64,000 bases of DNA from Dictyostelium discoideum (GCA_000004695.1 CM000150.2:3680001-3744000), one strand, 5' to 3'. Positions 3,818 to 54,306 are shown, counted from the first letter of the stretch. Numbers and translations: made by a program. The notes: generated from the sequence alone by a model not told the origin.

Positions 3818-5303
3818 TTAATATGGTTTGAATTTTCTTGCAGCAGTAACTTTAGAAATTCTTTGTTTATCTTCTTCGAATTTTTGTCTTAAAACATCTA
3901 ATTCATCCTTTTTAGTTTGTCTATGTTGGAAGGCATAGAAATTCTTCTTTTCTTTCTTTTCCATTAAAGCTTTAACTTCTTCAGCTGTCATTACTTTAGC
4001 ACTTGATGGTCCAACTGTAATGAAACCTTCTTCATCTGGTACATTTCTTAATTTTGATCTCTTCTTACTTTCCAATACTCTCTTATCATAATCAATCATA
4101 ATATTATCTAATTTAGTTTGTAATTCATCATAATCTACAATAATCTTTGAATTATATTGATTTAATAAATCTAAAAAATAATAAAAAAGAAAAAAAATAA
4201 AAAAATAAAAAAAAAAGTTAGTTTCTACACATATATATAATAAATTATAAATTTTAAATAATTTTTAAATACAATTTTACATACAATTAAAACCATTTAA
4301 TGGTAAAGATGGTTGTTGAATTGATAAAGAATGTGATTTCTTTAAGAATAATTTTAAAGAATCTTGATCATTCATTACGATATGAGCAACATGTTTTGTA
4401 GATTCATCGATTTGTTCTGGTGATGAATCATCAGTTTGTTGTTGAGTATCATTATTTTTAAGATTTGGTTGACCGAAATGAACAGATTCAATGAAATCAT
4501 ATTTAAATAATTTTTTAACATCTTCTAAACTTTGACAATGAGTTGGCAAATTTGTAACAAATAAAGTTTTATTTTGTGGCCATTTCTTATTAGTTTCTTT
4601 TTTAATATATATATATTTTTTAAATGTTGAATTTTCAATTTGTACTGGTAAAATTGTAAATCCACTAATTGTATTTTCTATTTTCTTTTCTTTCTTTTTA
4701 ATTGGACTTATTTCTTCATCTGATGACGAATCATCTGATGATGATGAATCTGATTCAACAACTTGTTTCTTTTTATTATTATTATTATTATTATTATTCT
4801 TTTTTTCTTTTACAATTTTTGGTTTTTGTTCTTCTTCAACAATTGGTTCTTCTTCTTTTTGAATGATTGGTTCCTCTTCAATAATTGGTTTTTCAATTTT
4901 ATTGGTTTTTTTATTCTTTTTATCTGTTGTTGTTGGTGTTGGTATTGGTATTGGTGTTGGTGTTGGTGTTGGAGTTGGTGTAGTTTGTTTTTCTTTTTTA
5001 GTTACAGATAATTTCTTTGAAGATTTAATTAGTTCTTCAACTACTGGTTCTATAATTTCTTGTTGTAATTTTTCTTCTTCTTTTTGTTTTTTAGATAAAG
5101 GTGGTGTTGGTTTTGGATCTTTTTTTATTGATTTAATAATTAATGGTTTGTCAGAAATTTTTAAAGTTTTATTGAATAATTGAGTTTGATTTTTTTCAGT
5201 CTGTATTATAACTTTCTTTTTTTCAACTTTTTCAATTTTTTTCTTTTTTAAAATTGATTTTGTTACTATTGGTGATATAGTTTCTTTTAAATCTTCATTA
5301 TTT

Positions 5304-5422: not shown

Positions 5423-5510
5423 TTTCTTCTTTTTTTCTTTTAAAAAAAAACAATATAAAAATTTATATACAAAATAGTTTTTATCACCAAGTAAAAGCAA
5501 TGAAATAAAA

Positions 5511-5552
<42 letters not shown>

Positions 5553-5707
5553 GATTCTTTCGTTTTTTTAGAAAAAAAAAATAAAAAATAAAAATAAAAT
5601 AAAAATAAAAACAAAAAAAAAAAAAATTAAATTTAAATAAAATTTAATTATAGAAATAAAAATAACCTTGAAAAAAAAAATAAATAATTTTCATCTATTT
5701 CATAAAA

Positions 5708-6529
5708 ATGACAGATATTAATCGTCATAGATATAGAGATAGAAGTGATAGTAGAAGTAGAGAAAGATATGAAAATAGACATAAATTATATAGAGATAGA
5801 AGTAGAAGTAGAAGTAGAAGCATAGATAAAGAAAGATATCATGAATCTGATAGACATAGATTATACAGAGATAGAAGTAAAAGTAGAGAAAGAGATAGAA
5901 TAAATACTAAACATGATAAAAATAATCTAGAAATAGATAAGAAAAGGAATACTGAAAGAGATGAAAATAAATATAGAGATAGAGATAAAAATAGAGGTAG
6001 AAGTAGAAGTAGAAGTAAAAGTAGAGAAAGATATAAAAAATATAAAAGAAATAGAAGTAGGTCTTCATCATCCTCATCATCCTCTTCATCTTCATCATCC
6101 TCATCTTCATCATCATCTAATGAAAGAAAAAAGAGAAAGAAGAAAAAGAAAGAAGAAAAGAGAAAAAGAAAAAAAGAAAAAAAAGAAAAAAAAGAAGAAA
6201 AAGAATTAAAAAAGAAATTAAAAAAAGATTCAAAAAAATCATCATCAACAGTTTCAACAACCACAACAACAACAACAACAGCAGCAGCAGCATCAGCAAC
6301 AAACACATCTAATTTAGTCAACAACAATAATAATAAAAAAAAAATGGGACCCATATCTGATGAAGATTATGAAAAGTTGAAAAATTCGTATAGAGAAGTA
6401 TTTGATGAAGATAGTGGTCGTACTAGAGTTGTGAATGGTAATGGTGAAATCGTTGAAAGAATAGTTAGTCGTGAACAACATAAAGCAATCAATTATATTG
6501 CTACTCACCACCCAACTCAATTTAAATAA
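5708..6529 (+). CDS. RS-rich splicing-associated protein, ARL6IP4/SRrp37-like
   Basis: ORF of 273 aa. N-terminal RS/RD dipeptide repeats, poly-Ser and K/E-rich tract. C-terminus MGPISDEDYEKLKNSYREVFDEDSGRTRVVNGNGEIVERIVSREQHKAINYIATH resembles the conserved ARL6IP4 C-terminal domain (..ETGRTRL(I/V)KG(D/N)GE(V/I)(L/V)EEIV(T/S)(K/R)E(R/Q)H..IN). Confidence 0.6.
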   Translation: MTDINRHRYRDRSDSRSRERYENRHKLYRDRSRSRSRSIDKERYHESDRHRLYRDRSKSRERDRINTKHDKNNLEIDKKRNTERDENKYRDRDKNRGRSRSRSKSRERYKKYKRNRSRSSSSSSSSSSSSSSSSSSSNERKKRKKKKKEEKRKRKKEKKEKKEEKELKKKLKKDSKKSSSTVSTTTTTTTTAAAASATNTSNLVNNNNNKKKMGPISDEDYEKLKNSYREVFDEDSGRTRVVNGNGEIVERIVSREQHKAINYIATHHPTQFK

Positions 6530-6673
6530 TAATAATAATTTTCTTTTTTTTTTTATTTATTTTATTTTATTTTATCACAATAAATATTGAAAAATGTTAA
6601 ATTTTTTATTTTTTTTTCCAATGTTTAACATTTTTTTTTTTCCAAGATTTGAATTAAATTTACATTTTTTATT

Positions 6674-7119
6674 TTATTGAGCAGATGAACAAGTATTTGT
6701 TAGAAAAATTTCATGAGTTTCTGAGGAACCAGAAGTTTGAGAAGTAGTTGAAGAAGCACCTGAATTATTACCACCTGTATCACCACTTGTTGAAGATTGA
6801 GTAGTACCACCACTCAAATCTCCACTTGTACCTGTTGAGCTACCACCATCATCTGGATTACCAGTTGAAGTACCTGTTGGGTTACCACTATCTGGATTGT
6901 CACCAGTTGAACTACCTGTTGAACTACCACCATCTGGATTATCACCAGTGTAAGTTCCAGTTGAATCAGCACCAGTTGAATCAGCACTTGTTGGATTTGC
7001 AGTAGTTGGTTGAGCAGTGGTTACACCTGATGCAGTATCACCTGAACCACTACCAAATAATACTAAATCATTGAAATTAATTAATGGTGCATTACCAAAA
7101 CCACCACCACCACCACCCA

Positions 7120-7162
<43 letters not shown>

Positions 7163-7885
7163 AATATTTCCTTTACTTTTACCTTTACTTTTATCAATAA
7201 CATTTTGACCAGAAGTTCCAGAATATGAAGATTCTGAAGAACCATTAATAAAAGGTCTAAACATATCACAAGAATCACCTTTTAAAATTATACCATTTGA
7301 ATCATCCATCATTTCAGGTAAACCATTTGGCATACAATAATAAGTGTATGCAACTTTACCAGGTGCAATTGCAACGGTTTCATTGGTTAAAAATTCATAT
7401 GCAATCACAGTACCAGAACAACTATCTAATCTTTGAGTTACAAGATATAAACTTTTTGCTGGATAAATTGGTGATGTTGAAATTTGAACTTTATAATCAT
7501 AGACTTGAGTTGGTAATCTAGTTGGATTAAATATTATATCACCCCCTTTATCACAACCCATATTTGTATATCTATAAGGTGATGTTGAATTACGATTGCT
7601 TGCTTTACAAACTCCCTTATATTTTGTACCAGTAATTGATCCTGTATTTTGATTCCATGAAAATTCCCATGATGTTGTATAACCATCAAATGAAATACAT
7701 GTATCTAAAGCAATTGAATATCCAAGACCATTAACTATACTTTGACAATTAAATCCATTTTTAAATGGTATAAAATTTACAAAAATTGGTGATTCTTTAT
7801 TAAATTTTATTGCTTTTGTTTTTGTTATTATTATAGTTAATATTAATAATAATAAAACAAAATTTAATAATGAAATTAATTTCAT
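6674..7885 (-). CDS. secreted Cys-containing glycoprotein with Gly/Ser/Thr-rich mucin-like C-terminal half (hypothetical)
   Basis: ATG at 7885 gives MKLISLLNFVLLLLILTIIITKTKA (signal peptide). Follows a roughly 230-aa Cys-containing domain with N-glycosylation sequons, a poly-Asn/poly-Gly tract, then a GDNPD/STGxS repeat region. The ORF-track start at 8029 is only poly-Phe read from a poly-A tract. Confidence 0.5.
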
Positions 7886-7909
7886 ATTTTTAAAATTTGT
7901 TTTTTTAAA

Positions 7910-7947
<38 letters not shown>

Positions 7948-7971
7948 ATAAATAAAAAAAGGTGATCAGTG

Positions 7972-8028
<57 letters not shown>

Positions 8029-8410
8029 AAAACGGGACCTTGGAATATAAATAAAAAAAAAATAAAAAAATAATTTAAAAAAAAAAAAATATCTTGTGTC
8101 GTAAAATATTTTTATTATTTTTTCGAGCAAAAAAAAAATTGCACGTTAGGTATAAAAATGAAAATATTAACTAATGTTAACTAATTTATTATAAATTGGA
8201 TTTACTTAAGATTTCTTTTTTTTTTTTTAAATTTTTAAATTTTATTTGTTTTATTTTTATATTTTTTTAACAATGCACTGCGCGTAATTTTATTTTAAAA
8301 AATTTTTTTTTTTTTTTTTTTATATAATTATATTTTATGTGAAAAAAAAAAAAAAAAAAAACTGGAAATTAATTAATTATTTTTTTTTATTTTTTTATTT
8401 ATTTATTTAT

Positions 8411-9196
8411 TTATTTAATATCACTAAAAGCAATTAATGGTAATAATACAGGATAACTAACAATTTTTAAAGCAACATCACCTTTTGTTTCTTTTCTTTT
8501 TAAATGACCATTACAAATTTTAAAATCTTGATGTATAATTTTACCATTGTATGGACCTTCTTTCATTTTTTGAGTTAAATCATTCTTTTGTAAAGTTTTT
8601 AAATTAATTCTCCAATTTGAATAATCTTTTTTATAGGATGATGGTAAATTTGTTAAACCAAAATCAATTGCAGTTAAAGCGATTTTAATAGTTCCATGTT
8701 TAGCATATGATAAATTTTCAATTGTTTCAATTTCAACACCATATGGTAATAATGATAAATCAATACCAACAAATCCTAATAAATCATCACTACCAACTAA
8801 ATCATGATCAAATACATCGAATATCAGTATTTCATTATTTACATTTTCAATATCGATAAAAACAGTTTCATCCCATATTGGATTTAAATTTCTATCAATT
8901 ACTTTTGTAGCTTGAAATGATTCATTACTTGATTTTAATTTTATATATGGATCTGATGAATTTGTACAAACATCTTCAATCATTAAATTTTGGGCAGAGA
9001 TTAATCTAACTTTTAATTTTCCTTTTCCATTTGGTTCTGAAAAAAATATTGAATCTTCTGATGGTATAAATTTATTACCAATAATTTTATTTGGTCTTAA
9101 TATTGGTTTATTTTCATGAGGTAAAGTTTTTATAAAAATTGGTTTATCTAAATTTGATTTATTATTATTATTTTTTGATGGTGGAATAGTTTCCAT
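8411..9196 (-). CDS. C2 domain-containing protein, 261 aa
   Basis: Single ORF. Central C2 fold signature KLKVRLISAQNL...DPYIKLK...TKVIDRNLNPIWDETVF..IFDVFDHDLVGSDDLLG, with Ca-binding Asp positions present. Confidence 0.7.
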   Translation of the reverse strand: METIPPSKNNNNKSNLDKPIFIKTLPHENKPILRPNKIIGNKFIPSEDSIFFSEPNGKGKLKVRLISAQNLMIEDVCTNSSDPYIKLKSSNESFQATKVIDRNLNPIWDETVFIDIENVNNEILIFDVFDHDLVGSDDLLGFVGIDLSLLPYGVEIETIENLSYAKHGTIKIALTAIDFGLTNLPSSYKKDYSNWRINLKTLQKNDLTQKMKEGPYNGKIIHQDFKICNGHLKRKETKGDVALKIVSYPVLLPLIAFSDIK

Positions 9197-10036
9197 TTAA
9201 TTTTTTAATAAATAAATAAAATTTTAATTAAAAAAAAAAAAAAAAATTTAATATTATAAAGAAATTTAAATGAATAAATTAAAGGAATTTTTTTTAGTAT
9301 AAAAAAAAAAAAAATAAAAAAATGGATTTGTTTTTTTTTTTTAGTATAAAAAAAAAAAAAAAAAAAATGGATTTGTTTTTTTTTTAATTTTTGAGAAAGG
9401 AAAAAAAATAATAAAAAAAAAAAAATGGTTTAACCAATTGGTGAAATTTTTGGATATTTTGAATTGAGATTAGATAGTATTGTTTTTTTTTTTATTTTAA
9501 AATTTTTGACCTGACAATGGTTTGTGTAAATTGATTGTGTCACATTTATATTATTTATCTCATTTTTTTATTATAAAATATATAGATATTTTTTTTTTTA
9601 TTTATTTTTTTTTTTTTTTTACAACAAATCTAATAATAGGGAAGATTCTTTTAAAAATATCTTTTATTTTTTGATATTTTTTTTTTTTTTAGGTATTATT
9701 TTTTTTTATTTTTTTTTTATTAAATTATTTTTTTTTTATTTATTAATTTAAATCAAAAATAATTTCCAAAAAAGGTTAATAATTTTTTATTTAACTTGAA
9801 ATGAATTCCAAATTCGATGAAAAAAAAAAAAAACAAATTTTTAAATCTTTTTTTTTTTTTTTTAAATTTAATTTTTCCTTTTTTTTTTCCTTTTTTTTTT
9901 TTCTTTTTATTTTTTTTTTTTTTATAATTATTTTATAATTTTTTTTATATGTGTGTGTGTGTGTTTAAAAACAATTTTTTATTTGGTGGTTTTTAAAAAC
10001 CTTTCATATTTCTATTAAAAAAAAAAAAAAAGTAAA

Positions 10037-10714
10037 ATGGTGTCCGATATTAATTTTTATAATAATAATAAAGATGAGCATATTAAAGCCAACACTTTTT
10101 CAATGGATCAAATTTGTCAATCTGCAGCATCAATATCTCCAATAATAACATCAACTTTAACAAATTCTCAACAACAGCATCACCAACTACAACAACAACT
10201 ACAGCAACAACAACAGCAGCAACAAAATAATATAATAACAAAACCAACAACTACTTCAATATCACCATCATGTACAGTACCATCAAGCCCAATAAATAAA
10301 CCTTTAAATAATTTTAATATAAATGATGACAATACCAACAAAAATAATAATAATAATTATAATATTAATAATAATATTAATAATAATAATAACGATAATA
10401 TAAAACTACAATGCGAAATATATGGATTCCATCGATTTATAACTTCAGCTAAAGGAGATATATCTATTAGTTCACTTTATAAAGGTAAATAAAATAAATA
10501 AAATAGGATTAAAAAAAAAAAAAATAATATATTAATATGTTTTATTTAATAAATTTTAGTATTAGAAGAAGAAATTAAACAAAATTATAAACTTAAAATT
10601 AAAATATTATTTATTAATGATTCAACACATAATAAATTATCACCAGATTCAATTGTAAATAAAGTTTTAAAGCAATCACAACAAATATATCTTTATGTGA
10701 CATGTGAAAAATAA
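10037..10714 (+). CDS. small poly-Q/N protein with C-terminal beta-grasp (PB1/ubiquitin-like) domain; join(10037..10484,10560..10714)
   Basis: Exon 1 ends ...SSLYKG at donor GTAAAT (10485). A 75-nt AT-rich intron ends TTTTAG (10558..10559). Exon 2 reads VLEEEIKQNYKLKIKILFINDSTHNKLSPDSIVNKVLKQSQQIYLYVTCEK*. The IKLQCEIYGFHRFI...ISISSL...IKILF...IYLYV pattern resembles a PB1-like fold. The family call is tentative, and an upstream exon is possible. Confidence 0.4.
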
Positions 10715-11171
10715 ATAGAATAAAATTAAATAATAATAATAATAATAATATATGTATAAAAAAAAAAAAAAATAATAATAAAAAAATAAAATAAAATAAA
10801 AAAAAAGGAAGAAATAAACGCACTGGTGTTGTTTTTCAAAACGAATTATATAAAATCATTTATATATAATATTCATTTTTTAAACATTTATTATTATATT
10901 TGTTATTATTATTATTAAAATTATTTATTATTATTATAATTATTATTATTATTTTTTTTTTTTTTTAATTATTGATACTACTTATTATTATTTATACTAA
11001 TTAGTTTGAAAGTTTTTTAATTATTATTATTATTATTATTATTTTTTTTTCTTTTTATTATTATTGATTGGATTTATTTATTGATTTACAAAATATTAAT
11101 ATTATTTATCGTCTACACAAAAAAAAGAGGGGGTTGCTGCATAAATTGATTTATTAATATTTTGACCATAA

Positions 11172-12200
11172 TCATTCAAGGCCACAATCTTTTAAAAATT
11201 TTGCAAGGAAATTATGATAAATTTGAATATCTGTTTTTGAAGTTGGAATTAAATGACCAAATTCATGGACATAACATTCAGGATTTGAAAATTGATGTGA
11301 AAGTGATTCACAATTTGATGCGGCAACCAACTCATCTGCTTTACCCCAAACATGAAGTGATGGTGTATTAATCTTTGCTAATGGGTAAAATGATGTGGTT
11401 GGTGTTGTAGAGGTTGATGATGTTAATGATAGTGATGTTGGTGATGGTGGTGAGTGTTGTTGTTGGTGTTGATGTGATGAAGATGATGAAGATGGTGTTG
11501 TCGTAGTGTGCTCCATTTCGAATTGGGTAACAGAACAACATTCACATCCAGAGTTTTCACCATTCTTTAGTGTTGTTGATATGGCAGATGATGATGGTGG
11601 TGGTGATGATTGTGGATATAATGATTGATGTGCTGTTGCTCTACTTTGGAATCCACTAAATAATAATGCAAATTTAATTTGGAAACAACTATTATTACTA
11701 TCTTCATTATAATTATAATTATCATTATTTAATGATGAAATTGAACAAATTAAACTAGCTAATACTGCACCTTGACTAAATCCTATAAAAATATATAAAA
11801 TAAAAAAAAACAATAAAATAAAAAAAAAAAAAAAAAATAATTAGAAATTATATACCAATAATAATAATTTTTTTAAAAAAAAAAAATAAAAATAAAATAA
11901 AATAAATTTACCAATTACACCATCAAATGGACCTTGAGTTTCAAATACATTACGAAGATAATCTAAAGTTTGTTCCCAACCTCTATATTCTTTACCATCT
12001 TTTGATGCTCTCCACCAAGATGATGATCCTTTTGATTCATCAACCATATGAGGGGCATCGACATAAATAAACTCTGCTATATCTTTTAATGATTTACGTA
12101 AGACTGCTGTTTTCGAACGAAATGCTACTGCATTTTGTTTATAACCATGTAAGCATAATATACGTAATAATTTCTTTGGTGTTTCAACTCCAATTGCCAT
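11172..12200 (-). CDS. FSH1/OVCA2-family serine hydrolase (DUF341); join(12200..11912,11782..11172)
   Basis: Exon 1 reads MAIGVETPKKLLRILCLHGYKQNA...GPFDGVIG and ends at donor GTAAAT (11911). Acceptor TTTTATAG (11784..11783). Exon 2 restores the nucleophile elbow G-FSQGA and ends ...LHVWGKADELV...EFGHLIP... (catalytic D/H region). Phase 1 across the intron. Internal S/P/T/Q low-complexity insertion. Confidence 0.75.
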
Positions 12201-13189
12201 TTTTTCTTTTTTTTTTATATTCTTTTTGTTTAATTGGTTGTTTTTTTTTTTATCCTTTTGGTTGGATTAGTTTTTTTTTTTTTTTTTTTTTTTTTTTGTT
12301 TAAACAATTATATTTTAAAAAAAAAAAAAAAAAATTAATAAACTGTATTTAATTATAATTATAAAAACAACTTTTGAATAATTATTAATTATTTAATTTT
12401 TTGAGGTTGTTACTTTTTATTTTTATTTTTTTTTTTTTTATGTTTTTTTGAAAACGAAAAAATTATTTATAAAAAAAAAAAAAAAAAGGTGCAAAATAAT
12501 AAACTAAATTTTTTTTTTTTTTTAATTAAAAAAAAAAGAAAGAAAGAACAATATTATTATTTGTTATTATAAATTATTATAATACACTGAATAAAAGTTG
12601 GATTATTGTTATAAAAAAAAATAGAAAAAAAAAAAACCAAAAATATTTCCAAACGAAAAAACAATAACAAAAAAAAAAAAAAAAAATATTTTTTAAAATT
12701 TAAAAATTTTATTTTTTTTTTATTTTTAATTTTAATTTTTTATTTTTTTATTTTTTTATTTTTATTTTTTTATTTTTTTATTTTTATTTTTATTTGTATT
12801 TAAAAATAATATTAGAAAAAAAAAAAAAAAAAAAAAAAAAACGTTCACCCACCAGAGTTGTTGGGAACATAATATTATTACTACACACACACACACAAAC
12901 AAGATGATTTACATTTTTTTTTTTGATACATACAAAAAATTGCACAATGCACCAAAAAAAAAAAAAATAAAAAAAAAAAAATAAAAATAAAAATAATATC
13001 AAAAGAAATCCATTTTTGAAAATAAAAAAAAAGATAAATTTTTTAAATCTTTTTATTTATACTTAATTAGATAATTAATTATAGAGTTTTAATTAAAATT
13101 TTAAAATTTTTAATTTAAATATTTTTACAACATTTTTAAAAATTAAAAAAGTAAAAAAAAAGGAGCGAAAAAAACAAAAATATGGTTGT

Positions 13190-42655: not shown

Positions 42656-43385
42656 TTGTTTAATAAATTAAAAATTTTTTATTCTCTTGATTTTTAGAAT
42701 ACTAAATAATTTGTATCCGCCTTATCTTTTTCAGTTTGCCGCAGGCGTAATATAAATGACTTAATAATAATAAGAATAGTAATCAACCAACCACTTTTTC
42801 TAAATAAAAAATTATATTTTTTTTTTTAATCATATTAATTAAATAATTACTTGGGGTGGCAAACCCACCAATGCTGAAATTTTTACATACAAACCTCAGA
42901 AAAGAATATTATGTGACAAGAGAAAAATTTTTAATGAGCGGGCAAGTGTAAATACAGATTTTTTTATTTTTTTTTATTTTTTTTTTATTTTTTTATTTTT
43001 TACAGTTGGGGTGTTAAATTAAATTCCAAAAAAAAAAAAAAATAAAAAACGAAAAAAAAAAAAGAAATATCTTTATCAAAAAATTTTTTTTTATTTTTAT
43101 TTTTATTTTTTTTTCGTTTTTTATTTTTTATTTTTTTTTATTATTTCTTTATTTTTATTATTTCTTTATTTTTTTTATTTAAAATTTTGCCAAAACAAAG
43201 CAAACATACAGTTTGCTAATTTTATTTGGCTTTTTTTCTTCACAACATGAGTTAACAAAATTAATTCTGGTGCGATCAAATTAATCGACACTTAATAAAA
43301 TTTATTTATTTAATTTTAAAAATCTTTATTTGTTTTTATTATTTATTATTATTTTTTTTTTGTTATTTTTAATTTTATTTATCTA

Positions 43386-47938
<4,553 letters not shown>

Positions 47939-48341
47939 TATTTTAAAATTTATAAATGTGGTATAACAAAAACACACATCCAAAAGGTTTGTTAGGATTT
48001 GTAGGATTTGATGGAAAAAAAAAAAAAAAAAAAAAAATGATAAAAAAAAAGAAAAAAAAAGAAAAAAAAAAATTAAAAAAAAAAATTGAAAAAAAAGAAA
48101 AAAAAAAAAATCAATTTTTTTAGAATCTTTGTGATTGAATCCTGAAAAAAAAAAAAAAATAAAAAAAAAAAAATGTGATTAAATCAAAATAAAAAAAAAA
48201 AAATTAAAAATAAAATTAACAAAAAAAAAAAAAAAAAAATTTAATTTGTGTGATAAAATATTTATGTCGAAATTTTTTTTGGTTGTGAAATTACTAACAA
48301 AAAGGATATTTTTTTTTTTTTTTTTTATTTTTTAATAAAAA

Positions 48342-48940
48342 TAGATTTTATTTTTATTTTGATTGAATCCAATTTGATAAATCTTGATTAAAAGCTTTGA
48401 ACCAATTTGAATTAATTGTAACCATTTCTAAATCTTGTTTAATTGAACGATCAGCAATTGGAACTGGATGATCTTTGAAAAAGTTGACGACTTCATTGTA
48501 TTGAGAATCATCCATTTTAGAGGTGAGACAACTACCAATGATACGACCAAACAAAGGAGAGTTATTAAAGGTTTCATCGATTTGATTAAAGTTTTTGGTA
48601 AAGTAAGCCCAAGCGAATTGACGAACACGATTTGGAAGGGTAAAGAAAACCATATAACTATCTTGACTTCTAACGGATGGAGATAAAGCGAAATTGAGGG
48701 CTTTTTCAACCAATTCCTCTTTTGGAGCCAAAGCAAGTACCAAAAGGTAAGAATTCTTTTCAGCAACTAAAGAAGATTTAAGATATTGATCAATGATGAT
48801 TTGTTGATCAGCTTCACCACCATTCTTTACGATTGTAGCAAGTACTGTAGAACGAATATCTGATGGTAAACTTGAAGAGTCTGCTTTGAAAGCTTCGAAT
48901 CTTTTCTTACATTCAGCAACGATCTGAACTAATTTGACTC
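48342..48940 (-). pseudogene. inverted, truncated duplicate of the 3' end (last 195 codons plus 12 nt of 3' UTR) of the M1 aminopeptidase gene at 51170-54083
   Basis: The minus strand 48940..48342 is about 97% identical at nucleotide level to plus strand 53505..54100. The encoded 129-aa tail differs at 3 residues (F/L, D/N, N/K). Similarity breaks off sharply on both sides, and an in-frame TAG lies 20 nt upstream of the homology. There is no start codon and no upstream exons. Confidence 0.75.
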
Positions 48941-50340
48941 TCTAAATTATCAATTTCTTGTCTCTTTATTGAAAATTGATAAAATATATTTGAATGTGGT
49001 TGTTCTTGAATTAATTGATTTGATATTTTATATTTTTCATCTACATCTTCTGTGAATATAATTCAATTTCTAAATTATCTCTTAAAATTTTATTAACATC
49101 TATAATCTATTATCACTACTACCTTGACTATTACTATTAACACCACCACTACTACTACTACTATTTATAATAATTAAAAAAATTATTAAAATTGAATATA
49201 TAAATAATTATTAAATATTATCATATTTTATATATATATATATTTATATAAAATTTTTATATGACTTTTTTTTTTTTTAAAAAAATTATTTTTTTAATTT
49301 TATTATTTTAATCTATTATTATTATTTTACTATTTTATTTTTGTATATACACAATAATATTATTAATTGTATAAATATTATATGTATTTTAAAAAAAAAA
49401 AAAAAAAAAATGAAATAGAAAAAATATAAAAGTATAACCCCCTTAAAATTTAGAATTTTTATTTTTTTAATTTTTTTTTTTTTTTATTTTTTTAATATAG
49501 ACAATCAAAAAGAAAACTAGAAATATTATAAACTACAACAATATCCTACAAAATCAATAATAATATCATAATAATCAACATTAACAATCAATTGGTTGAT
49601 ATTATTCATATTTAAAATAGGGGTTAAATAAATAAAAAAAAATTATATGGACATGTTGTGTTGGTGAGTTATCGTATGAACATGGGTGCTTGCGACCGCC
49701 AAGACTAAAGGATAAAAAAAGAATTTTATTCGGGTCATAATAAAAAGTGGTATTTAACACTGTTTTGGTATATCGTAAATAGCTTTGTGGTTCACAAAAA
49801 TTATAACAAATATAGCCTATCCTGTAGAGAATTTCGTAAAACTATTTTGGAAGATTTGAATGGTCACCAAACCCTTGGGGCGTACTTTCTAAGTTCAACT
49901 TTTTCAATTTTTTCTACTTTTTTTCAGATTTTTCAAAGAAAAAATAATGAAAAAAATTAATAAATATAAATAATATTCATTTTAATTACCAAACAATCTA
50001 ATTATTATTTTTATTTGTAGTTTTTAAAAAAAAAACCGTTAAAAAACTTTTCTGATTTTTTCCTATTTTCGATAAATATTTCTTTAAAAAAGATATTATT
50101 ATTTATGTTAATTGGGGTGTTAAATATTTCTTTAAAAATTTTTTTTTTGAAGTTGTGTTTTTTTAATTAAATAAATAAATTCATAATTATTTCCTTCTAT
50201 TCATAAAAAAAAATTGTAATTGATTATATGAATTGATCGATTTCCTTTTATTAATAAAAAAAACTCATAATTATCTACTTCTATTAATAAAAAAAAAAAA
50301 TAAATTCATAATTATTTCCTTCTTTTAATATAAAAAATGG

Positions 50341-50960
50341 TAAACTCTTGACCAACAAAAAAGCAAAAGACTCGACCAAATTTAATGTTGTATTCTCTTG
50401 GATTAGAACCTGTATAGATAACTTATTATATTTAATTAATGAAAATGAAGAACTTAAAGAAAAACGTACTAAAGATAAACATATAATTTGGGTAGGTGTT
50501 TAATATTAAATTAATAACATTATTTTTTTTTATTTTTTTTTGTGTTAGACTCTCTTATATTGGAAACAATATCTTCCAATTAATGAGATATGTGTTACTT
50601 TTGGTATTAGTCCAAAAACATTTCAAAATCACTATAGTCAAACCATTGAGTTGTATGCAAGGAAATAATGGAAAGAGATATGATAAACTTGTTGGATCAG
50701 TTAGTTTTTTAAAACATCCTATATCTAATGTGCTTTATCGTGCAATTGCTGCTGACTCTACATCTATTGATATTGAAACTCCCGCTGATTACCAAATCCA
50801 AAAAAAATACTATTCTGGTAAAAGCAAAAGTCATGTGGTCAAATTATTCGTAAACATGATAGTTTTCCAATCTTGGGTAATTATTTTAAATAACCTCGCT
50901 ACCTCTTACTTTAATACTTTGTTATTTTATTATTATTATTATTTTTTTTTTTTTATTATT
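50341..50960 (+). mobile_element. relic of a Harbinger/PIF-type (DDE_Tnp_4) transposase gene, spliced but frameshifted and truncated
   Basis: Exon-like block 50348..50491 (...KDSTKFNVVFSWIRTCIDNLLYLINENEELKEKRTKDKHIIW, donor GTAGGT). A 57-nt intron ends TGTGTTAG (50547..50548). Block 50549..50668 TLLYWKQYLPINEICVTFGISPKTFQNHYSQTIELYARK* has an HTH resembling the Harbinger N-terminal HTH. After a +1 shift, 50655..50950 reads RYDKLVGSVSFLKHPISNVLYRAIAADSTSIDIETPADYQIQKKYYSGKSKSHVVKLFVNMIVF, which matches the Harbinger core (...N(V/C)(I/L)GAIDGTHI.I..P.......(Y)YSGKKK.HT(I/L)K.Q(V)V.D) with D-to-N substitutions. There is no initiating ATG and no second Asp / Glu region. Confidence 0.45.
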
Positions 50961-51169
50961 ATAATAATTATATATTATTGGTATTTTTTATTTATAAAAA
51001 TTAAAATCTGGGCAATAAAAAAAAAAAATAAAAAAAAAAAATAAAATAAATAAAAAAAAATAAAAAAATTTTTATTTTTTTTTTTGTGATCATCAATTTA
51101 ATTTGTTTTAATTTATTTTATTTTTTTTAATTTTTTTTTTTTTAATTTTTTTTTTTTTAATTTTTTAAA

Positions 51170-52170
51170 ATGAAAAAAATAAATTTAATTTCGATTATTA
51201 TTTTTATAATTTCACTTGTTTATTTTAATTTTATACATATAAATAATAATATAGTTGAAAAAATGTGTGATCATAAACATTTAGTTGACAAAGTAGATAG
51301 ATTAGTATTACCAGATAATATCGTACCAAGTAAATACGATTTACATCTTAGACCAAATTTAAAGGATTTTGTATTCAGCGGCAAAGTTGACATTACAATC
51401 AATATTGTTAAACCAACCAAAAAAATCATTATCCATTCAATTGACATTGAAATTCAATCAGTAAAGATCTTAAATCAACAAGCTACTTCCGTTACCTACT
51501 ATGAACCAGAAGAAGTTGCAATTTTAGAATTCCAAGATGAATTACCAGTTACAGAAAATACAATTCTCTCCATTGATTTCACTGGTATTTTAAATGACAA
51601 ATTAAAAGGTTTCTATCGTTCAAAATATGTTGTCAATGGTGAAGATCGTTATATTGGTACCACTCAATTCGAAGCCACTGATGCTCGTCGTGCTTTCCCA
51701 TGTTTTGATGAACCTGCTTTAAAATCTTTCTTTAATATTAAAATCACTATTTCATCTCATTTAACTGCTCTTTCAAATATGGATACAACTTCTGTAATTG
51801 AAAATAATGATGGTACTAAAACCTTTATGTAAGTGTATTATATATATTATATTGAGAAAAAAAAAAAAAAAAAAGTACTAATTTTTTTTTTTTTCTTTAT
51901 TTTTTTTTTTAAAATTAAAAGTTTTGAACAAACTCCAAAGATGAGTACTTATATTGTTGCATTTATAGTTGGTGAATTCGATCATATTGAGTCACATACT
52001 AAAGAAGGTATTAGAGTTAGAGTTTACAAATGTGTTGGTAATAAAGAATCAAGTGAATTTGCTTTAGATGTTGCCACCAAATCATTATCTTATTTCATTG
52101 ATTACTTTGGTATTCCATATCCATTAAATAAATGTGATCACATTGCCATTCCAGTACGTATTTTTTATTA

Positions 52171-52229
<59 letters not shown>

Positions 52230-54083
52230 TAATCATATTCTTCTTAATAATAATATGTTAATTCCTTTAATAATATATAATGATACCATTACCAATCACC
52301 ATCACCATAGGACTTCTCCTTTGGAGCTATGGAAAACTGGGGTTTAATTACTTATCGTGAATCAATTTTATTAACATCAGATAAAACTACTCTTCGTACT
52401 AAACAAAGAATTGCTAATGTAATTGGTCATGAATTAGCACATCAATGGTTTGGTAATTTAGTAACAATGGAATGGTGGAGTCAATTATGGTTAAATGAAG
52501 GTTTTGCAACATTTATGGGATATTTATCAACTCATCATTTATTCCCAGAATGGGAAGTTTGGAATGATTTCTCTGATTGTTATAGAAATGGTGCACTTCG
52601 TTTAGATGCTTTAGAGAATTCACATGCAATTGAAGTACCAGTACGTCTTTCGTCTCAAATTTCAGAAATTTTTGATGCCATTTCTTATAACAAAGGTTCA
52701 TGTGTAATTCAAATGTTAGAGAGTCGTTTCGGTGAATCATTTAGAAAAGGTCTTCATCATTATTTGGATACTCATTCCTATAAGAATACCAATACCGATG
52801 ATCTTTGGGCTTCAATTTCATTGATTAGTGGTGTTGATGTTAAATCATTCATTGATTCATTCACAAAGTATCCAGGTTATCCAGTAGTTTCATTCACTCC
52901 AACTTCAACTGAAGGTACCTTTGAATTATCTCAAAAGAAATTTAGATTACAAGGTTCTGAGAAATCTGATGATCCAATTTGGAATTGTTTCATTAGATTC
53001 CAAACTGGTAATGCTGGTCAACATGAATTCATCTTGGAGAAGAAATCCGATACCGTAACAATTCCAAACTTTAAAAATGGTGATTGGATTAAACCAAACT
53101 ATGGTCAAACTGGTTATTTCCGTATTGCCTACTCACCTGAAACTATCAAAGCATTGGTTCCAAAGATTAAATCAATGGAAATTCCAACTCCAGATCGTTT
53201 AGGTTTATTATCAGATGTTTTCAATCTTTGCAAGGCACACACTTCTTCCATCTCTGCCTATATGGATTTAGTTTTGGCTTTTGAAGATGAAAAGGAAAGT
53301 AATGTTTGGGATTTCATTATCGATAGTCTTGGTTCTATTCAAACTTTAATTGAAGATCAACCATACTCAAGTAGATTCAATGAAATCTTTGTTCAACTTT
53401 TGAAACCACTTTCAAAACGTTTAGGTTTCGAGCCAACCAAAGGTGAACCATCTTCAGATACCTTGTTAAGAGATAAAGTAAACACTAAATTGGGTATGTT
53501 GGGTGATGCTGATATCGTTGCTGAATGTAAGAAAAGATTCGAAGCTTTCAAAGCAGACTCTTCAAGTTTACCATCAGATATTCGTTCTACAGTACTTGCT
53601 ACAATCGTAAAGAATGGTGGTGAAGCTGATCAACAAATCATCATTGATCAATATCTTAAATCTTCTTTAGTCGCTGAAAAGAATTCTTACCTTTTGGTAC
53701 TTGCTTTGGCTCCAAAAGAGGAATTGGTTGAAAAAGCCCTCAATTTCGCTTTATCTCCATCCGTTAGAAGTCAAGATAGTTATATGGTTTTCTTTACCCT
53801 CCCAAATCGTGTTCGTCAATTCGCTTGGGCTTACCTCACCAAAAACTTTAATCAAATCAACGAAACATTTAAAAACTCTCCTTTGTTTGGTCGTATCATT
53901 GGTAGTTGTCTCACCTCTAAAATGGATGATTCTCAATACAATGAAGTCGTCAACTTTTTCAAAGATCATCCAGTTCCAATTGCTGATCGTTCAATTAAAC
54001 AAGATTTAGAAATGGTTACAATTAATTCAAATTGGTTCAAAGCTTTTAATCAAGATTTATCAAATTGGATTCAATCAAAATAA
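51170..54083 (+). CDS. M1-family zinc aminopeptidase, puromycin-sensitive aminopeptidase (NPEPPS)-like; join(51170..51828,51922..52153,52311..54083)
   Basis: Donors GTAAGT (51829) and GTACGT (52154). Acceptors AAAAG (51920..51921) and CCATAG (52309..52310). Phases 2 and 0. Exon junctions restore FEQTPKMSTYIVAFIVGEFDHIE and HIAIP|DFSFGAMENWGLITYRE (GAMEN exopeptidase motif). HELAHQWFGNLVTMEWWSQLWLNEGFA is the HEXXH(X)18E zinc site. The protein is colinear with human NPEPPS to the C-terminus. The N-terminus MKKINLISIIIFIISLVYFNF is hydrophobic. Confidence 0.85.
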
Positions 54084-54306
54084 AAATAAAATCTCTTACA
54101 ATGAAAGATCTTTGTTTTAATAATTGATAGTGATAAAAAAAAATGAGACGAAAACTAAAATAAACATCAAATTATTGTTTTCCTTTTTAAAACACAAATT
54201 TTATTTTTTTAAATTTATTGTTTTGGTTAAAAAAAAAATTGCTTTTTTTTTTTGTTTTTGCGTTCATCCAGAAGTATAGATTTATTTTTGGTAACATATG
54301 AATGTA

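Follow-up and report, generated by a model that had tools for sequence, protein, structure and literature searches.

The 64,000-nucleotide stretch of Dictyostelium discoideum DNA analysed here (the window) contains, 5′ of an aminopeptidase gene, a segment of about 1 kb that resembles a broken transposase gene. This raises the question of whether the segment is the remnant of a transposon or of a cellular gene that has decayed in place. We consider, with a probability of about 90% given the sequence comparisons, that positions 50071–∼51066 (+ strand) are an inert relic of a two-gene PIF/Harbinger (IS5-related, DDE_Tnp_4) cut-and-paste DNA transposon bounded by terminal inverted repeats (TIRs). 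The host range of the element family is the D. discoideum species group. The G+C content of the window is ∼10–36% per kb and its genes are spliced.

An initial annotation, made from the window alone, had placed a spliced, decayed Harbinger/PIF-like DDE transposase gene at 50105–50960. The extent had to be replaced: homology to other copies of the element runs from 50071 to ∼51066, the left breakpoint lies at ∼50070, and upstream of 50071 there is no homology to any element copy. tblastn found a single copy in the window. The identification itself was borne out by the full-length homologues described below. The proposed Harbinger-type helix–turn–helix (HTH) and first catalytic region of DDE_Tnp_4 were recovered as co-linear, sub-threshold Pfam matches of the conceptual translation, to HTH_Tnp_4 (E 0.008, 16.2 bits) and DDE_Tnp_4 (E 0.004–0.012, 15.7–17.2 bits, cut-off 24.8). 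The same translation matches the protein P0001 with an E-value of 1.7e-59 and 81% identity, and the D. firmibasis protein P0002, named ‘DDE Tnp4 domain-containing’, with an E-value of 1e-47; further matches are weaker, and P0006 from D. cf. discoideum is only ∼46% identical. Both P0001 and P0002 score above the DDE_Tnp_4 gathering score (32–34 bits versus 24.8), and it is because these relatives reach the cut-off that the window copy can be assigned to the family. No protein identical to the window translation is present in a database of 5.8 billion sequences, where the best match is 81%; thus, no assembly represented there annotates this copy as a gene.

At the DNA level, the close relatives of the segment all come from D. 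discoideum and its sister species. The loci compared were L001 and L007 from D. firmibasis, L002 and L003/L004 from D. discoideum (L004 being L003 reversed) and L005 and L006 from D. cf. discoideum. Window positions 50071–51069 are 80–92% identical to the D. discoideum copies (one in L002 and two inverted copies in L003/L004) and 72–85% identical to those in L001, L005 and L006. As the neighbouring genes of the copies are unrelated between loci, the segment belongs to a dispersed repeat. The L003 locus holds two decayed copies arranged head-to-head (8452–10871): copy B, which is reversed and extends from exon 3 to intron 1, adjoins the upstream region of copy A, and a right TIR is found in copy A only.

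The anatomy of the element is most clearly seen in the full-length relatives, which are ∼4.1 kb long (reference copy, L006 5693–9826). The inverted repeats of L006 are 99 nt long, 94% complementary and 3.9 kb apart, and those of L002 are 126 nt long (85%). The element termini are AAATTTTATG...CATAAAATTT, with ends reading AAATTTTATGAAAAAAT(A/G)AAAAGTT..., and the common terminus AAATTTTATG... is found in L002, L005, L006 and at the right end of L003 copy A. All three complete elements have identical 3-bp flanks (AAT/AAT in L002, AAT/AAT in L005 and ATT/ATT in L006), which indicates a putative 3-bp target-site duplication (TSD). Between L005 and L006, which occupy different loci in a single genome, identity is 95–98% over ∼4.1 kb and ends at the repeats. 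Every full-length copy also carries a second open reading frame (ORF-A) of 335–364 aa, upstream of the transposase and divergent to it. It is the combination of TIRs, a 3-bp TSD and a pair of genes, one encoding a DDE_Tnp_4 transposase, that gives the element its PIF/Harbinger anatomy. The TIRs, TSDs and paired Myb-like ORF that had been suggested as checks were therefore found in part: TIRs, 3-bp flanks and a divergent second ORF are present in the full-length relatives, whereas the window has no TIR core, even allowing 3 mismatches, and no trace of ORF-A by tblastn, and no Myb-type domain was detected.

Multiple alignment revealed that the deposited transposase models P0001, P0002 and P0003 (221, 272 and 220 aa, from loci L002, L001 and L005) leave out a third exon, which is either spliced over or lies beyond a premature end of the model. 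They lack the third catalytic residue because the exon for LGDRAY...RVYVENFF is skipped. Splicing in exon 3 (GT...AG; FPILG/DRAYISLPNF...RVYVENFF..., with the slash at the junction) gives three-exon proteins of 326–327 aa, and those of L001 and L002 match positions 2–157 of the 158 of DDE_Tnp_4 at 73–80 bits. Two annotated proteins, P0006 of D. cf. discoideum (327 aa) and P0007 of D. firmibasis (326 aa), are intact and have the same structure. The two GT–AG introns of the gene are conserved. The predicted catalytic triad consists of the D in AIAADSTSID, the D in GFPGSVHD and the E in RVYVENFF; these D126/D181/E columns line up with the distant DDE_Tnp_4 protein P0010. N-terminal of the DDE core, P0001/L002 matches HTH_Tnp_4 at 20.8–21.7 bits, below the cut-off of 27. 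An AlphaFold 2 model built from a 5-sequence alignment has confident helices at residues ∼20–100, with a mean predicted local distance difference test (pLDDT) score of 46.6 and values below 50 in the catalytic domain. Among four intact or near-intact copies, the pairwise ratio of non-synonymous to synonymous substitution rates (dN/dS) is 0.08–0.22, and the transposase has therefore been under purifying selection.

The wider relatives of the transposase were sought with several searches. HMMER retrieved 453 representatives at E ≤ 0.001. The nearest are proteins of D. purpureum, D. dimigraforme, Polysphondylium violaceum and Cavenderia fasciculata, the non-dictyostelid protist Lithocolla globosa is also among them, and metagenomic sequences come next. 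Relatives at ∼30% identity sit on metagenomic contigs of 1–3.6 kb. A protein-alignment scan of bacterial and archaeal genome contigs gave no match, and a sequence search of the PDB with P0006 found no relative.

The ORF-A products form a six-member, Dictyostelium-only family in which no Pfam or NCBIfam domain is detected even at E ≤ 10. In the AlphaFold model of ORF-A, only an N-terminal three-helix bundle (residues 7–58) is confidently predicted, and a Foldseek search of this low-confidence model against the PDB returned nothing at E ≤ 0.001. The D. cf. discoideum elements carry repeated inverted sub-terminal motifs, CCAT(C/A)CAATAATTAAAACCTTATTTAT and tandem units of TTTGTCAAGATTTGTCAA (L005 11330–11352 and 11497–11525; L006 5868–5890, 9389–9458 and 9560–9623). 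These could be binding sites for the accessory protein.

Compared with these elements, the window copy is extensively damaged. The initial annotation had it lacking an initiator methionine, which proved wrong: an ATG at 50337 opens MVNS, identical to P0001, and is followed at codon 5 by an AGA to TGA stop (R5; 50349–51). The frame that had been read from 50348 is correct only from ...IDNLLYL onwards, and is off before a 4-nt deletion at 50412/3. The clean intron described previously is real; its position is kept in all copies and its junction is that of P0001/P0006 (...KHIIW/ALLYW...). What had been taken as one +1 frameshift in exon 2 is in fact a 10-nt deletion (50645/6), a TGG to TGA stop at a tryptophan codon (50647–49) and a 1-nt deletion (∼50671). 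The codon for the first catalytic Asp is retained (GAC, 50754–56, in AIAADSTSID). The loss of the distal D/E region, as reported, was confirmed and results from two separate deletions. One of 151 nt at 50839/40 takes out ...GFPGSVHD... with the second catalytic Asp, and is bordered in L002 by the 10-nt microhomology TGG(T/C)CAAATT. The other, of ∼430 nt at 50993/4, takes out exon 3 (LGDRAY...RVYVENFF, with the catalytic Glu) and joins the intron 2 remnant directly to the 3′ untranslated region (3′-UTR) and inner right TIR, of which the outer ∼45 nt are missing. The left TIR has been lost altogether.

In total, the window copy carries 3 frameshifting and 2 large deletions as well as 2 stop codons, and the first Asp alone is left of the three catalytic residues. 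It is ordinary immobile transposon junk that cannot transpose, and is better masked as a repeat or pseudogene than annotated as a gene. The features that could be assigned to it are listed in Table 1.

Table 1. Parts of the element recognized in the window copy
Feature	Position	Strand	Basis or remarks
Internal region between the two divergent genes, proximal 266 nt (5′ of transposase)	50071..50336	+	79.7% to L002 9793–10182; 83.7% to L003 9768–10152
48-nt internal sub-repeat, 1.5 units	50073..50138	+	TAAATATTTCTTTAAAAA at 50073 and 50121; direct repeat D16, spacing 48
∼44–52-nt repeat, three copies, core TTCATAATTATTTCCTTCT	50162–50213, 50246–50297, 50287–50338	+	Directly 5′ of transposase ATG
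Transposase exon 1 remnant	50337..50491	+	Alignment to L002; tblastn of P0001/P0006 starts at 50337
Intron 1, 57 nt, GT...AG (GTAGGT...TGTGTTAG)	50492..50548	+	75 nt shorter than in L002
Transposase exon 2 remnant	50549..50876	+	HTH region ∼50549–50650
Intron 2, 5′ part, ∼117 nt (GTAATTATTTT...)	50877..50993	+	81–83% to L002 10740–10884 and L003 8732–8563
3′-UTR and inner A-rich part of right TIR, ∼70 nt (ATAAAAATTAAAATCTGGGCAAT...)	50994..51066	+	Alignment with L003A, L002 and L006

The short repeats upstream of the transposase had been proposed as terminal or sub-terminal repeats of the element. Three copies of a ∼40-nt motif are indeed present, at 50180, 50264 and 50305, and these are the only sites in the window. 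However, they and the 14-mer TTGGGGTGTTAAAT at 50112–50125 are internal, lying between the two genes at a distance of over 2 kb from the left terminus. All three copies of the longer ∼44–52-nt repeat also occur in D. discoideum L003 and L002, and a single degenerate copy is present in L005, the one D. cf. discoideum copy aligned. The 14-mer falls inside the 48-nt sub-repeat, where the motif GGGGTG(A/T)TAAAT is kept in the corresponding position in both L002 (two units) and L003. The ∼40-nt and 48-nt repeats are candidate promoter or protein-binding repeats.

The recurrence of the 14-mer elsewhere in the window was confirmed, at 43006, but a link to the element was not. We considered whether the 43006 site could be a second element end and rejected this, the match being 14 nt only with unrelated flanks. 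Among 409 comparable 14-mers of the segment, 2 recur in the window, the other being an unrelated, GC-containing sequence. Since nothing beyond the 14 nt matches and another unrelated 14-mer also recurs, we take the 43006 match to be due to chance.

How the relic arose is suggested by the lesions that it shares. The R5 stop, the tryptophan stop and both large deletion junctions are common to the window copy and to L003 copy A, which lies at an unrelated locus, and a 3-nt indel region is a fifth lesion common to the window copy and the D. discoideum copy elsewhere. The two copies have diverged by 10–16%. Because these lesions are held in common with a copy at another locus, the window copy would have been dead already when it was copied. 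In an intact element, the 327-aa transposase, encoded by three exons, carries a D...D...E core preceded by a predicted HTH; it would cut at the ∼100-nt TIRs and reinsert the element with a 3-bp target duplication. By analogy with the pair of transposase and DNA-binding partner in other Harbingers, the ORF-A accessory protein probably partners the transposase. Most simply, an internally deleted derivative, no longer functional, would then have been copied to a second D. discoideum locus, either by mobilization in trans while its termini remained or by segmental duplication, and the window copy would have been truncated further after copying.

A number of points weigh against this interpretation. 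The window copy by itself falls below the Pfam thresholds, so that its assignment depends on relatives, and the two-protein mechanism is proposed by analogy only. No Myb/SANT domain was detected in the accessory ORF with Pfam or NCBIfam, and the AlphaFold model of ORF-A is poor (mean pLDDT 45, from a 5-sequence alignment). The TSD comes from only three elements and its register is ambiguous by ±1 nt, the flanks being AT-only sequence that can also be read as TAA, TAA and TAT or as ATA, ATA and TTA. Finally, as the 151-nt deletion lies between 10-nt microhomologies, it could have originated independently in both copies.

One alternative to a transposon copy is a domesticated, HARBI1-like nuclease gene of the host, which would have turned into a pseudogene at its present site. 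HARBI1, which Kapitonov and Jurka are said to have described in 2004 as a vertebrate domesticated Harbinger transposase, shares the DDE_Tnp_4 domain family, and a domesticated gene of this type had been raised in the initial annotation. Apparently immobilized copies do exist in the genus: at L001 in D. firmibasis, an intact 326-aa ORF stands alone without recognizable ends, and its surroundings show no homology to ORF-A or the TIRs. The predicted catalytic Glu of the L001 copy is replaced by Lys (RAYVKNFF), and its dN/dS against L007 is 0.19. The window copy, however, is a fragment broken in several places that belongs to a multi-copy family, unlike a conserved single-copy host gene, and its stops, frameshifts and deletions exclude a functional domesticated gene there. 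That the gene simply decayed in place is highly improbable, as the stops and deletion junctions in the window are common with a copy at another locus, and the relatives occur in multiple copies that sit at unrelated loci between TIRs and 3-bp duplications. In addition, the window keeps element-specific non-coding DNA (the upstream repeats, 3′-UTR and inner TIR) beside the coding part, and the closest relative of the fragment is already indicated to be a TIR-bounded element. The L001 copy (10001–11321), with its E to K change, absent ends and intact ORF, may on its sequence be an immobilized copy or an early domestication; it too differs from HARBI1, in that the predicted catalytic Glu is missing.

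A relic of a transposon might nevertheless have acquired a function as regulatory DNA, here as the promoter or 5′ region of the M1 aminopeptidase gene. Its position would suit such a role, with the relic ending ∼100 bp upstream of the aminopeptidase ATG (51170) in the same orientation. We give this very little chance, because there is no sign of conservation beyond neutral decay, the segment being 8–20% diverged from its relatives and carrying window-specific deletions. A further alternative concerns the name of the family rather than its nature: it could already carry a name as DDT-A/B/S or thug-S/T, D. discoideum DNA transposons that are unclassified, in which case our finding adds a superfamily label only. 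The DNA transposons of D. discoideum have been listed as Tdd, DDT and thug only, with transposases that lack significant similarity to known ones (PMC5633606), a statement that may predate the DDE_Tnp_4 profiles. Like the element described here, thug-S has an intron, and it is multi-copy (PMC4894637). Against this, no D. discoideum AX4/UniProt transposable element protein is among the homologues, and of the 13 small RNAs in the table of PMC4894637 none could be mapped, at ≤3 mismatches, to the window or the compared copies, although this evidence is weak, as the thug-S RNA among them could not be distinguished. On the protein matches and this small-RNA mapping, we regard identity with one of the named DDT/thug transposons as rather unlikely.

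We compared the PIF/Harbinger relic and its relatives with known systems. PIF/Harbinger elements are eukaryotic cut-and-paste transposons, such as maize PIF, rice Ping/Pong and zebrafish Harbinger3_DR. The Dictyostelium element shares with them a DDE_Tnp_4 transposase with a putative N-terminal HTH (a sub-threshold score here) and a D/D/E core, TIRs, a target duplication of 3 bp made up of A and T only, two genes transcribed separately and internally deleted non-autonomous derivatives. In contrast to the superfamily, the transposase is short (327 aa), the TIRs are long (∼100 nt), the flanks in symmetric register are AAT/ATT (AWT) instead of the canonical TWA, the second ORF has no Myb/SANT-type Pfam match and the window copy keeps no mobility features.

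PIF-Harbinger has been linked to bacterial IS5 (PMC3673617), and the catalytic core is distantly similar to that of IS5, including the QKKYYSGKxKxHxxK and PGSVHD motifs. The score is however 28.1 bits against the 140-bit cut-off of the NCBIfam IS5 models, and the Dictyostelium element differs in its two spliceosomal introns, second gene and ∼4.1-kb length.

The initial annotation had also stated that elements of this type are not expected in this genome, which was overstated. DDE_Tnp_4 genes across dictyostelids are already known as automatic annotations, with DDE Tnp4 proteins annotated in D. purpureum (DICPUDRAFT_30982), Polysphondylium violaceum (CYY_004398), Cavenderia fasciculata (DFA_11398) and D. 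firmibasis (RB653_004816/009386). These belong to one protein family with the transposase, at 29–79% identity to P0006, but are database gene models without an element-level description. A full-text literature search found no paper describing a Harbinger/PIF/HARBI1-type element in Dictyostelium, or Harbinger in Amoebozoa.

For the window itself the significance is small, this being ∼1 kb of dead transposon 5′ of an aminopeptidase gene. More generally, a dispersed Dictyostelium repeat gains a superfamily identity (PIF/Harbinger, IS5-related), and L006 5693–9826 can serve as a complete reference, with its termini and TSD length defined and the transposase model corrected to three exons. In D. 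cf. discoideum, the two ∼4.1-kb copies are 95–98% identical, with TIRs matched at 94% and both ORFs intact. We tentatively suggest, as a possibility well short of an even chance, that the family is an undescribed PIF/Harbinger lineage that is, or was until very recently, active in D. cf. discoideum, that has died out or is decaying in D. discoideum, and that is equipped with an accessory protein without a recognizable Myb/SANT domain. If true, this would be a new variant of the two-gene Harbinger architecture, and would bring a recognizable transposase to a genus from which the reported DNA-transposon transposases were unlike any known (PMC5633606). The apparently intact copies of a cryptic sister species could also be tried as a native cut-and-paste tool in an organism whose DNA transposons have hardly been studied.

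The L002 locus is a 79-kb D. discoideum contig that holds the best D. discoideum copy, at 7657–11448, together with other elements at 4185–5216 (+), 5481–7169 (−) and 11842–12235 (−). Besides hAT-type fragments (Dimer_Tnp_hAT and ZBED1 RNase-like) and a reverse transcriptase (RVT) fragment, the contig contains another DDE_Tnp_4 gene, divergent from the first, whose motifs are classic for Harbinger (VLGDSAY...RRVYVEQFFG; 26.5 bits). D. discoideum therefore has no fewer than two Harbinger-like lineages, along with a hAT lineage.

Elsewhere in the window, a stop-interrupted frame at 49649–49903 (+), reading ...YRMNMGACDRQD, a stop and RIKKEFYSGHNKKWYLTLFWYIVNSFVVHKNYNKY..., is unique among the loci compared. 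A resemblance to the C-terminal core of piggyBac-type transposases was unsupported by Pfam and by a phmmer search of the PDB. The aminopeptidase gene downstream of the relic (ATG at 51170) encodes Peptidase_M1_N, Peptidase_M1 and ERAP1_C domains. Its 3′ coding end (53514–54097, +) is present as a 584-nt inverted duplicate at 48340–48923 (−) with 98.5% identity, a truncated gene fragment ∼1.1 kb upstream of the relic, and this truncated inverted duplicate therefore points to a local rearrangement.

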